In this document: piece by piece, positions 599 through 37,709 of the stretch | Position numbering within the stretch: the first letter of the stretch is position 1 | Layout: each line of letters opens with the position of its first letter | Assembly: GCF_024298765.1 (NCBI RefSeq) | Contig: NZ_CP101210.1 | Source of the DNA: Escherichia coli | GTDB taxonomy: Bacteria > Pseudomonadota > Gammaproteobacteria > Enterobacterales > Enterobacteriaceae | Direction: 5' to 3' (one strand) | DNA length: 64,000 nt | Notes under the pieces: generated by a model | Database searches by the model: none | Told to the model about the DNA's origin: nothing | What the model saw: only the letters and a program-made list of their open reading frames with translations | Translations under genes and position numbers: made by a program

Positions 599-1315
<717 letters not shown>

Positions 1316-1442
1316 TAGGAAGTAAGTTTTATGTTGACGGCACAGTCAACTTGGCATAGATTAATTAAACCAAGCCCAGCCCCGTTCGCAGACAATTGTT
1401 AATATCTGCATAACGGCTCTGGGCTATTTTTTTGGGACTCTT

Positions 1443-2300
1443 ATGAAGAAAGCAGCAATTTTAATTGATGCGGGTTTTTTCATGCAGCGTGTTCATGCTA
1501 CGCATCGTAAACACTTCGCCGAGCATGAACTGACTGCGCAATGCATAATGAAAGTAATATGGTCAATGGTTCTTTCCCATCTTAATGGAAAACGTCAATC
1601 ACAAGAACGTAGGGAACCGCTTGAGCTTTATAGAATTTACTTCTATGACTGTCCACCACTCGACATTCAAACACGCCTTCCACTTCCTGAGCCTGGCAAT
1701 AAGACGCCTGGTCGCAAGAATTTCAAACTCGAAAAATCATATATTCTGAGAACGGAGCTGCATGAAGAGTTAAGAAAAACTCGAAAAACAGCCTTAAGAT
1801 TAGGGAATCTTGTTGATAATAAGCGATGGCAACTAACTACATTCTCCCTTGATGCTCTGATGAAAGGAACGAAAAAATGGGATGAACTGACAAATGATGA
1901 TTTTTACTATGACATCAAACAAAAACAAGTTGATATCAAGCTAGGGATGGATATCACGACTTTAGCTTATGAAAAACTTGTTGATGTAATTGTCCTTGTT
2001 GCTGGGGACTCAGACTTTGTGCCTGCCGCCAAACACGCCAGAATTAAAGGTATTGATTTTATTCTTGATCCACTAAGACAGAATGTTACCCCATCACTGT
2101 CAGAGCACATTGATGGAGTTCAGTCATACAGCTTGATATCAGGACTTGCCGATGCTTTACATGTTGAGCCAGACCCGGCACCTGACTGGTGGGAAGATCG
2201 AAAAAAAGGCAAGCCTAGGGGAAAAAACAATAGCGGTAAACGCAGGTATGGAAACACTCAAGCTGAGTCTGCAAAGAAACATCAAAGAAATAAACGATAA
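1443..2300 (+). CDS. NYN/LabA-like PIN-fold predicted nuclease with Lys/Arg-rich C-terminal tail; occupies the rexA-rexB position
   Basis: 285-aa ORF with ATG start; motifs AAILIDAGFF, VDIKLGMD and VLVAGDSDFVPAAKHARIKGIDFILD resemble NYN acidic motifs; does not match my recollection of RexA; AT-rich. Confidence 0.75.
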   Translation: MKKAAILIDAGFFMQRVHATHRKHFAEHELTAQCIMKVIWSMVLSHLNGKRQSQERREPLELYRIYFYDCPPLDIQTRLPLPEPGNKTPGRKNFKLEKSYILRTELHEELRKTRKTALRLGNLVDNKRWQLTTFSLDALMKGTKKWDELTNDDFYYDIKQKQVDIKLGMDITTLAYEKLVDVIVLVAGDSDFVPAAKHARIKGIDFILDPLRQNVTPSLSEHIDGVQSYSLISGLADALHVEPDPAPDWWEDRKKGKPRGKNNSGKRRYGNTQAESAKKHQRNKR

Positions 2301-2309
2301 TCCCATCAA

Positions 2310-2336
2310 CCCGGCCACCGAGCCGGGTTTTCTTTG
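2310..2336 (+). terminator. Rho-independent terminator after the NYN gene
   Basis: cccggc-caccga-gccggg hairpin followed by ttttctttg. Confidence 0.6.
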
Positions 2337-2491
2337 CCTCACGATCGCCCCACCTAAAAACACATAACCAATTGTATTTATTTTAAAATTAATAGGTGCA
2401 ACTCACTAAACAACGCAATTCTGATCTCTCGATCACCTCCCAAGCCACACAACCCTGCAAAAAATAAATCTATATAAAAAACATACAGATA

Positions 2492-2552
2492 ACCATCTGC
2501 GGTGATAAATTATCTCTGGCGGTGTTGACACAAATACCACTAGCGGTGATAC
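2492..2552 (+). promoter_or_regulatory. Left operator OL3 (2492..2508), OL2 (2511..2527), OL1 (2535..2551) with pL (-35 ttgaca 2525..2530, -10 gatact 2547..2552)
   Basis: aaccatctgcggtgata, tatctctggcggtgttg, taccactagcggtgata upstream of N. Confidence 0.88.
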
Positions 2553-2592
2553 TAAACACACCAGCAGGACGCACTAACCCACATGAAGGTGA

Positions 2593-2781: not shown

Positions 2782-3679
<898 letters not shown>

Positions 3680-5728: not shown

Positions 5729-6405
5729 CACCGGACATTATCCTGCAGCGTACCGGGATCGACGTGAGAGCTGTCGAACAGGGGGATGATGCATGGCACA
5801 AATTACGGCTCGGCGTCATCACCGCTTCAGAAGTTCACAACGTGATAGCAAAGCCCCGCTCAGGAAAGAAGTGGCCTGACATGAAAATGTCCTACTTCCA
5901 CACCCTGCTGGCTGAGGTTTGCACCGGTGTGGCTCCGGAAGTTAACGCTAAGGCGCTGGCCTGGGGAAAACAGTACGAGAACGACGCCAGAACCCTCTTT
6001 GAGTTCACTTCCGGCGTTAATGTTACTGAATCCCCGATCATCTATCGCGACGAAAGTATGCGCACCGCCTGCTCTCCCGATGGTTTATGCAGTGACGGCA
6101 ACGGCCTTGAACTGAAATGCCCGTTTACCTCCCGGGATTTCATGAAGTTCCGGCTCGGTGGTTTCGAGGCCATAAAATCGGCTTACATGGCCCAGGTGCA
6201 GTACAGCATGTGGGTGACGCGAAAAGATGCCTGGTACTTTGCCAACTATGACCCACGAATGAAGCGTGAAGGCCTGCATTATGTCGTGGTTGAGCGGGAT
6301 GAAAATTACATGGCGAGTTTTGACGAGATGGTGCCGGAGTTCATCGAAAAAATGGACGAGGCACTGGCTGAAATTGGTTTTGTATTTGGGGAGCAATGGC
6401 GATGA
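5725..6405 (+). CDS. exo: Exo (lambda exonuclease, Red-alpha)
   Basis: 226-aa [68 protein letters not shown]... Confidence 0.97.
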
Positions 6406-35672: not shown

Positions 35673-35916
35673 CTTACCATCTCGTTTTACAGGCTTAACG
35701 TTAAAACCGACATGAGCGTAATATTCGCTGTTATCGGTGAAATTTGTTTTATATGCTAAACAAGATAGTCGAATGGTGGGGAAAAGTCACTCGAATTACG
35801 TATGAGATGCCGAATGCCACACTTTGCGTCTTATTCCTCCGACGTAGAGTTGTTTACGCAGCAAACGCGGAGTATGTCATCAGGGTCAAGAATTGAAATT
35901 GAGAGATGCCTGAATA

Positions 35917-35947
35917 GCAAAAAAGCGCCTTTAGGGCGCTTTTTTGC
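35917..35947. terminator. Bidirectional rho-independent terminator (end of lysT tRNA operon)
   Basis: A-run, aagcgcc..ggcgctt hairpin, T-run. Confidence 0.7.
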
Positions 35948-35949
35948 AT

Positions 35950-36025
35950 TGGTGGGTCGTGCAGGATTCGAACCTGCGACCAATTGATTAAAAGTCAACT
36001 GCTCTACCAACTGAGCTAACGACCC
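35950..36025 (-). tRNA. lysQ: tRNA-Lys (UUU)
   Basis: Reverse complement is GGGTCGTTAGCTCAGTTGGTAGAGCAGTTGACTTTTAATCAATTGGTCGCAGGTTCGAATCCTGCACGACCCACCA; symbol assigned by order. Confidence 0.93.
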
Positions 36026-36058
36026 CTTGCGGGATTATGCTGCTTTAATCATTCAGGA

Positions 36059-36134
36059 TGGTGGGTCGTGCAGGATTCGAACCTGCGACCAATTGATTAA
36101 AAGTCAACTGCTCTACCAACTGAGCTAACGACCC
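36059..36134 (-). tRNA. lysZ: tRNA-Lys (UUU)
   Basis: Identical 76-nt tRNA-Lys sequence; symbol by order. Confidence 0.93.
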
Positions 36135-36182
36135 ATACGGGTGTTACCTGAAAGATTTCTACTCGGAACCAATGTTTAAAAT

Positions 36183-36258
36183 TGGTGGGTCGTGCAGGAT
36201 TCGAACCTGCGACCAATTGATTAAAAGTCAACTGCTCTACCAACTGAGCTAACGACCC
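36183..36258 (-). tRNA. lysY: tRNA-Lys (UUU)
   Basis: Identical 76-nt tRNA-Lys sequence; symbol by order. Confidence 0.93.
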
Positions 36259-36261
36259 GAG

Positions 36262-36337
36262 TGGTGGGTGATGACGGGATCGAACCGCCGACCCCCTCCT
36301 TGTAAGGGAGGTGCTCTCCCAGCTGAGCTAATCACCC
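36262..36337 (-). tRNA. valZ: tRNA-Val (UAC)
   Basis: Reverse complement is GGGTGATTAGCTCAGCTGGGAGAGCACCTCCCTTACAAGGAGGGGGTCGGCGGTTCGATCCCGTCATCACCCACCA. Confidence 0.93.
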
Positions 36338-36388
36338 GATACTGCGCTGGATACTACAAACTACTTCCACCGAACCCACAGTAATTAG

Positions 36389-36464
36389 TGGTGGGTCGTG
36401 CAGGATTCGAACCTGCGACCAATTGATTAAAAGTCAACTGCTCTACCAACTGAGCTAACGACCC
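36389..36464 (-). tRNA. lysW: tRNA-Lys (UUU)
   Basis: Identical 76-nt tRNA-Lys sequence; symbol by order. Confidence 0.93.
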
Positions 36465-36466
36465 GG

Positions 36467-36542
36467 TGGTGGGTGATGACGGGATCGAACCGCCGACCCC
36501 CTCCTTGTAAGGGAGGTGCTCTCCCAGCTGAGCTAATCACCC
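36467..36542 (-). tRNA. valT: tRNA-Val (UAC)
   Basis: Identical 76-nt tRNA-Val sequence; symbol by order. Confidence 0.93.
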
Positions 36543-36577
36543 GATACTACGCTGGATACTACAACTAACTATGTTAG

Positions 36578-36595
36578 TGGTGGGTCGTGCAGGAT
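36578..36595 (-). pseudogene. Orphan 3' fragment of tRNA-Lys (last 18 nt ATCCTGCACGACCCACCA) in the lysT-valT spacer
   Basis: tggtgggtcgtgcaggat matches only the 3' end of the tRNA-Lys genes; upstream sequence is unrelated. Confidence 0.7.
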
Positions 36596-36677
36596 GACTC
36601 GACTTCGTCTCGCCCTTCGGGCCGTTGCTGACGCAACGTTATCCTTCACGTTTTACTACCGCGTCCACCTTAGCGAT

Positions 36678-36753
36678 TGGTGGGTCGTGCAGGATTCGAA
36701 CCTGCGACCAATTGATTAAAAGTCAACTGCTCTACCAACTGAGCTAACGACCC
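36678..36753 (-). tRNA. lysT: tRNA-Lys (UUU)
   Basis: Identical 76-nt tRNA-Lys sequence; first gene of the operon. Confidence 0.93.
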
Positions 36754-36917
36754 ACTTTTTCGTTGCTTTCGGTTTGTTTGATATCCCGTGGCAACGGCGG
36801 CATATATTACTGATTTCAGACTTGAGCGCAACAAAAATTTCGATGTAGATCACTCAACTGCTTATGATTCGCACGACACGACCAGAAATAATGCGACTTC
36901 TGGTCGTGTGTTATGCA

Positions 36918-37709
36918 TTACATCGCGTTCAGACGTTTTTGCGCCTGTTTAGCGCCATCAGTACCAGGGTATTTACTGATAACCTGCTGGTATACGGCTT
37001 TCGCTTTTGCGGTGTCACCTTTGTCCTGCATGATGACGCCGACTTTAAACATCGCATCTGCAGCCTTCGGTGACTTCGGATAGTTTTTCACTACCGAAGC
37101 AAAATAATACGCCGCATCATCTTTTTTACCCTTGTTGTAGTTTAACTGACCCAGCCAATAATTGGCGTTTGGCAGGTAAGTTGAATCAGGGTAATTTTTG
37201 ATGAAATTCTGAAATGCCACCATTGCGTCATCCTGGCGGGATTTATCCTGCACCAGCGCAATAGCTGCATTGTAATCCGTGTTTGCATCACCGCTTTTCA
37301 CCGGCGCGCCAGCATTCGCAGTACCAGCATCAGCTGTCGGCGTCGTTGATGCCGCCACACCGCTTTGATCGCCGCTGGTTGATTGCGCCGCTGCACCACC
37401 GCTGCTGAGGCTGTCGATCTGCAACAGGATCTGCTTTTGCCGCTCCACGACCTGATTCAGTTGATACTGATTTTCCTGAATCTGACCACGCAGGGAATCA
37501 ATATCGGATTGATTATCAGAGAGTTGTTGCTGGAGTTGGGTTAAAAGCTGGCTGTGAGCATTAGAAATACGCTCAAGTTGAGTGACGCGGTCTTCGACCG
37601 AGCCTGAGCCGACACTACTGATTGGTGCCTGAGCAAAAGCGGCCCAGGGGGCCGCTATACCAACCAGTAACGACAGACTCAATAGTTGATGTCTGAAGTT
37701 ACTGCTCAT
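36918..37709 (-). CDS. cpoB: CpoB (YbgF) TPR periplasmic protein
   Basis: 263-aa ORF with signal peptide, coiled coil and C-terminal TPR. Confidence 0.93.
   Translation of the reverse strand: MSSNFRHQLLSLSLLVGIAAPWAAFAQAPISSVGSGSVEDRVTQLERISNAHSQLLTQLQQQLSDNQSDIDSLRGQIQENQYQLNQVVERQKQILLQIDSLSSGGAAAQSTSGDQSGVAASTTPTADAGTANAGAPVKSGDANTDYNAAIALVQDKSRQDDAMVAFQNFIKNYPDSTYLPNANYWLGQLNYNKGKKDDAAYYFASVVKNYPKSPKAADAMFKVGVIMQDKGDTAKAKAVYQQVISKYPGTDGAKQAQKRLNAM

Follow-up and report, generated by a model that had tools for sequence, protein, structure and literature searches.

A conserved structured RNA accompanies a family of predicted NYN-type nucleases across phyla and mobile elements, and one such pair occupies the place of rexA-rexB in a lambdoid prophage of Escherichia coli. 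The window analysed here is a 64,000-nt stretch of E. coli contig NZ_CP101210.1 (assembly GCF_024298765.1), and positions refer to it unless a locus number (L001 and so on) is given. The cassette under study (~1333-2336) lies between the repressor gene cI and the OL operators of a lambda-type immunity region and comprises a promoter-like site, the RNA, an open reading frame (ORF) for a 285-aa NYN protein and an intrinsic terminator. The NYN annotation and the occurrence of such genes in many phages were known before; what is added here is the conserved RNA partner. From the layout of promoter, RNA, terminator and nuclease gene, carried by mobile elements in slots expressed in lysogens, we tentatively read the cassette as a type III-like RNA/nuclease toxin-antitoxin or abortive-infection module, a reading by analogy to which we give somewhat less than even credence.

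The spacer between cI and the NYN ORF is 127 nt long, and its transcript is predicted to fold into a long three-helix hairpin (1373-1425) followed by A1426 and a run of seven U residues (U7, 1427-1433). This intrinsic-terminator-like structured RNA (1373..1433, plus strand), which we term class A, was delineated by RNAfold, covariation and a covariance model. Its helices are P1 (1373-1379/1419-1425), P2 (1382-1386/1413-1417) and P3 (1388-1392/1406-1410), closed by a 13-nt loop (1393-1405). The P1 stem is GC-rich and the U7 tract ends 10 nt before the NYN start codon; by sequence, this arrangement of a GC-rich P1 and a U-run before the gene has the form of an intrinsic terminator and is the same across the family. 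RNAfold applied to the whole cI-ORF intergenic region (1316-1445) gave -35.5 kcal/mol, with a z score of -2.4. A Shine-Dalgarno-like GGGA (1434-1437) and its spacer, inferred from the sequence (1434..1442, plus strand), lie outside the hairpin, so that any control would act at termination or in trans rather than by masking of the ribosome-binding site. Translational masking by the hairpin was rejected on this ground.

Homologues elsewhere share a common plan, in which a TTGAC-type -35 and a -10 element are followed within ~10 nt by a 55-65 nt structure with a terminal U-run, then by a Shine-Dalgarno sequence and the start codon. In a Klebsiella element and in the Proteus phage Brookers, the spacer and the promoter-like site are conserved nearly base for base, and Brookers carries a compensatory change in one helix (GCAGA/UCUGC to GUAGA/UCUAC). 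Class A RNAs go with long-form gammaproteobacterial proteins, that of the window included. Across 19 distinct class A sequences, the 17 base pairs of the structure are 93.5% paired, and 11 of them show compensatory (both-side) change. None of 500 shuffles reached the observed values, and partners slid out of register paired at 28-46%.

A second group of RNAs, class B/C, precedes genes for short-form proteins in Alpha-, Beta-, Gamma- and Deltaproteobacteria, Acidobacteria, Bacteroidota, Thermaceae, Verrucomicrobia, Elusimicrobia and Treponema, and also in Burkholderia phage phiE202, Streptococcus phage Javan85 and Xanthomonas plasmids. Its elements follow in fixed order: an 8-bp P1, an unpaired CAGUA(C/A)G, a variable P2 hairpin, GCCGA-N-CC, the 3′ strand of P1 and a U-run. 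Both unpaired motifs, CAGUA(C/A)G and GCCGA-N-CC, are conserved. In a covariance-model alignment of 53 distinct sequences, 88.5% of cells pair and 138 cells are compensatory, against 44 ± 6 in shuffles; since the model itself shaped this alignment, a fairer comparison is with the slid controls (26-56%). A CAGUAC core is common to classes A and B, and on the strength of this shared core we regard the two as one RNA family.

Both covariance models were specific for the NYN gene. The class A model (R1) has one true match in the 64-kb window (76.6 bits, E 1e-20) and none in lambda, and its remaining matches all lie just upstream of NYN genes; the class B model behaved in the same way over 442 kb. 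Throughout the 350-440 kb searched, matches fell almost only on the plus strand, 20-100 nt before an NYN start codon. Together the models located the RNA in 61 of 79 genome loci, and most of the others show it by eye; at three of the 79 (L056, L064 and L081), neither model nor eye revealed one. A scan of the window against Rfam 15 at E ≤ 10 gave no relevant match, and scans of 20 loci with gathering thresholds and of 16 loci at E ≤ 1 gave none either; the library scanned, which we take to include the abiF RNA motif, yielded no match to the RNA of the NYN cassette. Sequence comparison in this way establishes a conserved predicted RNA structure and its linkage to the NYN gene family. An earlier note, made from the window's sequence alone, had presented the gene as encoding a stand-alone nuclease; that description cannot be kept, since a conserved RNA partner goes with the family across phyla.

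Conservation of the RNA exceeds that of the gene it precedes. Between the window and the copies in Klebsiella, Tatumella, Photorhabdus and phage Brookers, the 53-nt hairpin is 89-100% identical, while the proteins of these same copies are 69-86% identical and their third codon positions only 37-44%. The hairpin identity, far above third-position identity, marks the RNA as the most constrained part of the cassette. In an Amylibacter metagenome-assembled genome (L101, 1052-1476), three tandem units of 145 nt, each with a promoter-like site, the NYN-associated RNA and a U-run, stand before a single NYN gene, an arrangement that fits a separately acting, dosage-sensitive RNA. The RNA is also found beside damaged genes. 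E. coli O157 AR-0428 (L019, 3431-3890) keeps the leader RNA and a 129-aa N-terminal remnant, followed by a deletion that reaches N. The Stx2a phage Stx2_EH0505 (L003, 7535-7968) carries a second, internally deleted copy in which the RNA is retained together with approximately the first 95 nt of the ORF, its last ~100 nt and the terminator.

Sequence profiles and structural modelling identify the 285-aa protein (ORF 1443..2300, plus strand, ATG start) as a predicted metal-dependent NYN/LabA-type PIN-like nuclease. This was the assignment of the earlier note, and the motifs it quoted are present in the translation (MKKAAILIDAGFF, QVDIKLGMDI and VLVAGDSDFVPAAKHARIKGIDFILD). The Pfam NYN profile that it had expected to match (PF01936) did so with an i-Evalue of 1.1e-8, over residues 158-205 only, and PF01936 is precomputed on all homologues. 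NCBIfam TIGR00288 (NYN) matched at E 5.5e-7, under its curated cut-off, and among the PHROGs the match (E 1.5e-119) was to phrog_5783, a family of "unknown function". Fifty-seven homologues (41-86% identical) were aligned; 34 columns of the alignment are invariant, and the invariant acidic residues are D9, D69, D164, D170, D189 and D191. The acidic pattern of NYN domains is present, with an Asp after strand 1, an Asp in the K-x-x-D-x-x-L helix and a G-D-S-D motif. AlphaFold2 run on this alignment yielded a model with pLDDT 89.2 and pTM 0.81, whose predicted PIN-like three-layer fold superimposes on solved NYN domains, so that the structure prediction proposed in the earlier note likewise bore out its assignment. 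A sequence search of the PDB found no relative, and the relation to solved structures came from fold comparison alone.

The protein shares its predicted fold and acidic-residue pattern with LabA-like NYN proteins (PF01936/COG1432; the MARF1 NYN domain 5yaa and VPA0982, 2qip). Relative to a minimal NYN domain, it adds two family-specific elaborations within the domain, at residues ~70-97 and ~121-158, and a C-terminal extension (~229-285) with a conserved P-x-WW motif and a non-conserved Lys/Arg tail. In the PIN-like classification of 2017, the LabA-like NYN proteins of bacteria were still without a known function. The Lys/Arg-rich tail, which the earlier note took to suggest nucleic-acid binding, is there (14 Lys/Arg against 6 Asp/Glu in the last 45 residues, pI 10.5) but is not conserved across the family: in the 57-homologue alignment it is confined to enterobacterial members, and Pseudomonas tails are neutral or acidic. 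It was therefore rejected as a family-defining nucleic-acid-binding module.

The ORF is a genuine gene on which purifying selection acts, as shown by its thousands of homologues, the 34 invariant columns and a dN of 0.11-0.44 against relatives with synonymous sites saturated. As dS was saturated, dN/dS ratios were not computable and third-position identity was used in their place. The 285-aa query has 7,035 matches and a short-form member at least 8,000; in a scan of one genome per species, relatives occurred in at least 590 species from many phyla.

The cassette is not the novelty of a single phage. The DNA of window positions 1316-2500 is 99.9% identical in Escherichia phage ev099, whose gp48 is annotated as an "NYN domain-containing protein", and it is also present in phages 2B8, E212 and EC.P3 and in ~50 Stx2a-converting phages. 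Over at least 80% of its length it was found in 73 of 5,426 complete E. coli genomes. Proteins of the same 90%-identity cluster occur in Klebsiella, Salmonella, Enterobacter and Tatumella.

In all contexts inspected the NYN gene occurs singly, with no partner protein conserved beside it, and the family has the character of single-gene mobile cargo. In the P22-like Proteus phage Brookers, the gene lies directly downstream of the repressor and is co-oriented with it; in Streptococcus phage Javan85, it lies between repressor and integrase. In Pseudomonas syringae, Halomonas and Burkholderia phage phiE202, it is found at a prophage end and adjoins the integrase. It is also carried by a satellite-like element of Klebsiella that has a primase and T5orf172, and plasmid copies occur in Xanthomonas, Aeromonas, Thermus and, in 136 cases, Campylobacter. 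The Campylobacter gene directly follows one for a 1,931-aa SNF2-related protein, near a MobP1 relaxase, and some family members adjoin other toxin-antitoxin pairs.

Other E. coli prophages carry a 59%-identical paralogue placed antisense between Q and the lysis genes. This 287-aa paralogue (L021-L024, 5001-5864), which has its own class A RNA and stands beside an N6/N4 DNA methyltransferase gene, is very common in E. coli, Shigella and Salmonella. Short-form members are near-universal on pTet-type conjugative Campylobacter plasmids (L016, 5998-6678; 136 records). In Pinirhizobacter (L095, 921-999), the C4 antisense RNA of P1/P7-type immunity gave a sub-threshold match (39.3 bits against a gathering threshold of 45, E 6e-4) ~500 nt upstream of the NYN cassette, which suggests another prophage immunity-region context.

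Alignment with lambda (NC_001416) defines the position of the cassette. The window's immunity region is lambda-type, in reversed orientation relative to the standard lambda map, with cro at 301-501 and pR at 554-526, both on the minus strand. The 237-aa lambda-type repressor gene cI (602..1315, plus strand), the upstream neighbour outside the cassette, is identical in DNA to lambda cI up to its stop codon and is annotated as a LexA-family repressor in identical prophages. Lambda homology ends a few bases past this stop, at a left junction placed at 1320..1332. From the cI stop to the terminator all lambda similarity is gone; it resumes at 2308 with the hairpin AACCCGGCC...GCCGGGTTTTCTTTGCC (AACCCGGCC...GCCGGGTTTTCTTTGCCTCACGATCGCCCC) and continues via OL, pL and nutL into N, which ends at 3105. 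The OL operators and pL (2487..2560, plus strand; lambda alignment and hexamer match) form the downstream neighbour outside the cassette, and a consensus scan places pL (TTGACA-17-GATACT) at 2525-2553. With lambda identity lost at ~1320 and back at 2308, the segment ~1320-2305 replaces rexA-rexB (35825-37114 in lambda) precisely.

Several claims of the earlier note about this locus can be judged from the alignment. Its central observation, that a single 285-aa ORF between cI and OL/pL has taken the place of rexA-rexB, is confirmed, as is its account of a gene co-oriented with cI and followed by a terminator (hairpin 2308-2329). The ORF was described as AT-rich relative to its neighbours, which holds only to a moderate degree: its GC content is 40.9% (33% at third positions), against 46.2% for cI, 49.5% for N and 49.8% for the window. 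Placing the gene inside the cI operon was too simple, as its own promoter-like site, leader RNA and 3′ terminator move with it elsewhere.

Upstream of the RNA, a consensus scan (9 of 12 matches) places a promoter-like site at 1333..1362 on the plus strand, with a -35 element TTGACG (1334-1339), a 17-nt spacer and a -10 element TAGATT (1357-1362). Homologues in unrelated contexts keep TTGAC at this place, -107 to -115 relative to the start codon, and in many family members it stands at a fixed distance upstream of the hairpin. The -35 element sits in a perfect palindrome, GTTGAC-N6-GTCAAC (1333-1350), which looks like a candidate operator for a dimeric regulator. About a dozen homologues, from Pseudomonas, Tatumella, Klebsiella and others, have TTGAC-N6-GTCAA with no more than one mismatch in the same interval (-107 to -115). 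Antitermination of the leader terminator by N or Q was dropped as a candidate: the transcript bears no nut or qut site, and pL lies downstream of the gene.

At its 3′ end, the cassette closes with an intrinsic terminator hairpin (2308-2329) and U-rich tract (2308..2336, plus strand), the likely right recombination junction. In Klebsiella and Tatumella, too, the hairpin (CCCGGCC-loop-GCCGGG) stands after the NYN gene, and it is nearly the same as the lambda terminator timm after rexB. These contexts of the terminator are unrelated to one another (L025, ~5860-5890; L029, ~2325-2355). The window's terminator has a loop like that of the cassette copies and a 3′ flank like that of lambda, which suggests cassette exchange by recombination within the hairpin; the shared hairpin is thus a plausible recombination junction. 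The cassette is, as read from these elements, a complete transcription unit with predicted promoter and terminators.

The layout most closely recalls ToxIN, AbiQ-antiQ, CptIN and TenpIN, which have the same order of promoter, non-coding RNA, intrinsic terminator and nuclease gene and are likewise carried by mobile elements. In ToxIN-type systems a labile RNA holds the nuclease in check, and we propose the same logic here by analogy. The components themselves differ. ToxIN-type toxins have the ToxN/AbiQ endoribonuclease fold, whereas the putative toxin here is NYN/PIN-like, and neither PADLOC nor NCBIfam gave a ToxN/AbiQ match for the 285-aa protein. The RNA of ToxIN-type systems consists of ~35-nt tandem repeats processed by the toxin, in contrast to the one multi-helix hairpin of 55-65 nt found here. 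No repeat array of the type III kind is present: the window has a single unit, and three occur only in the Amylibacter locus, each with its own promoter-like site.

Two further systems offer partial parallels. In lambda, RexA-RexB occupies the same slot, between cI and the timm terminator/OL, in the same orientation, and has the exclusion role, expressed in the lysogen, that would be expected here. RexAB is, however, a two-protein system (a sensor and a membrane protein) transcribed from pRM, whereas the cassette has one nuclease, its own promoter-like site and an RNA; DNA alignment found no sequence relation of the cassette to RexA or RexB, and the protein belongs to NYN. The AbiF (Abi_2) system of a Clostridioides difficile prophage resembles the cassette in being prophage-encoded with a structured non-coding RNA directly upstream of the effector gene, and that RNA, RCd22, neutralises the toxin in cis and in trans (bioRxiv 10.1101/2025.04.15.648962). 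The protein families (Abi_2 and NYN) are unrelated, as are the RNA motifs.

No characterised defence family claims the protein, in agreement with the earlier note: the PADLOC domain matches are weak, the PHROG family is of unknown function and we found no paper describing it in the literature covered. PADLOC-DB 2.0 returned only HEC-09 (E 2e-4) and NYN (E 1.4e-3), each over ~45 residues, and four other family members likewise had only short domain-level matches. Membership in HEC-09 or in the PADLOC NYN family was rejected because these matches are at the level of motifs; that to HEC-09 spans 46 residues, and its N-terminus is different. DS-3 (a split PIN protein from DefensePredictor) is a validated single-protein defence whose catalytic mutants abolish defence; identity with it was also rejected, as the sequence differs and the hhalign probability is 0.3%. 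HEC-09, NYND (WP_001399740.1) and DS-3 are likewise single-protein predicted RNases proposed as anti-phage, and none is reported with an RNA partner. The 215-aa NYND could be neither placed in nor separated from the NYN family studied here; when a short-form member served as the query, the best 120 matches included no E. coli protein. In the literature covered, which was incomplete, we found no paper linking NYN proteins to an RNA antitoxin or describing the RNA of the cassette.

In the mechanism that we propose, ~1333-2336 would be an autonomous, horizontally mobile transcription unit (a "moron") in place of rexA-rexB. Its promoter, if active, would yield a structured RNA of ~55-60 nt that ends at the terminator-like U-run, and the NYN gene would be expressed only via read-through of this leader terminator. 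Most transcripts would stop at the U-run, leaving the RNA in excess, and the RNA would bind and restrain the nuclease, or its synthesis. An infecting phage that shuts off host transcription or speeds RNA decay would lower the level of the RNA; the freed nuclease, presumed to be toxic and to act on RNA rather than DNA, would then cleave RNA and abort the infection. The lysogen would in this way gain an anti-phage exclusion function replacing that of RexAB. Such a defence role is plausible by location and layout.

Several observations weigh against a type III-like module. Both the single hairpin, in place of the tandem repeats of known type III antitoxins, and a nuclease fold other than ToxN/AbiQ depart from the model systems, and the promoter and terminator calls are consensus matches only. 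The terminator-shaped leader, moreover, also fits a cis attenuator or riboswitch. On that account the RNA would be purely cis-acting, sensing a ligand or the NYN protein and keeping the nuclease gene off until a signal arrives; the nuclease would then be an effector gated at transcription, whether for defence or not, and the RNA would have no role as antitoxin. The structure ends in a U-run right before the gene, so that folding would mean termination, and a binding pocket could be formed by the unpaired CAGUA(C/A)G and GCCGA-N-CC of class B. Regulation of their own mRNA via stem-loops is, furthermore, seen in NYN/PIN-like RNases such as Regnase-1. The promoter-like -10, however, lies only ~10 nt before P1 and leaves no room for an antiterminator helix, and neither the three tandem promoter-RNA-terminator units before one gene nor the RNA copies kept beside deleted genes are easily explained by a leader acting in cis. 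We consider this account possible but distinctly on the unlikely side.

A different explanation makes the RNA the nuclease's substrate or product: the pair would produce a processed small RNA, or break down particular transcripts, and would serve the element itself, through lysogeny or plasmid maintenance, addiction or counter-defence on entry, rather than exclusion. Support comes from Campylobacter, where conjugative-plasmid copies lie near a relaxase and beside an SNF2 protein, a context that could suit a role in entry or counter-defence, and from family members beside toxin-antitoxin pairs. The Proteus copy is a conserved chromosomal gene beside glmS with no obvious mobile element, and two single-gene NYN candidates, HEC-09 and NYND, gave no protection in published E. 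coli screens; both points, like the Campylobacter context, also count against an exclusion module. Yet the recurrent slots expressed in lysogens (after repressors, beside integrases, antisense in the late region) follow the pattern of prophage exclusion genes, and the cassette here replaces rexAB itself, which makes service to the element alone improbable in our view. Slightly further down the scale, and frankly speculative, is the idea that the RNA is the sensing or specificity element of a new ribonucleoprotein immune effector found across phyla, phages, satellites and plasmids. It could, for example, be a decoy or sensor bound or cleaved by a phage factor, switching the NYN nuclease on, or it could direct the choice of targets. 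Least credible is a stand-alone NYN nuclease expressed from pRM in the cI operon, with the hairpin as an ordinary terminator or insulator. The gene is indeed co-oriented with cI, a terminator follows it and no partner protein gene was seen in any context inspected, but the hairpin, loops included, is conserved far above synonymous sites, covaries and stays with the gene family in different phyla and on different types of element, and the promoter-like site lies inside the cassette, between cI and the hairpin. We give this explanation very little weight.

If the pairing of RNA and nuclease is functional, it would provide a function and a testable mechanism for the very large LabA/NYN family, which comprises thousands of clusters at 90% identity, occurs in at least 590 species and has no assigned role so far. 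RNA-controlled toxin and abortive-infection systems would also gain a toxin fold and an RNA motif that are both new. For lambdoid phages, the ~50 Stx2a-converting phages of pathogenic E. coli included, it would mean that the rex slot swaps complete exclusion cassettes, by recombination at a shared terminator hairpin.

Screens of single proteins can miss the RNA component, as can annotation pipelines that split such genes. In RefSeq E. coli chromosomes whose DNA is 100% identical to the window (L001, 4128-4985; L020, 1628-2485), PGAP splits the intact 285-aa ORF into a 118-codon pseudogene ("PIN domain-containing" or "hypothetical", C-terminus missing) and a 117-aa NYN protein (WP_137413698.1). 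The split probably stems from the use of the truncated 129-aa O157 allele, WP_000708838.1, as protein evidence. In the RefSeq record of the phage, the NYN gene is annotated at full length.

Beside N, where lambda has sieB, the window carries a minus-strand ORF of 167 aa (3098-3601) with a C-terminal CxxC...CxxC motif. It matched phrog_1244, of unknown function (E 4.6e-53), and had no meaningful match in PADLOC. In prophages that share the immunity region, this position holds other genes, such as one for an Nmad5-family protein in E. coli locus L001, and it is thus a second variable cargo slot.

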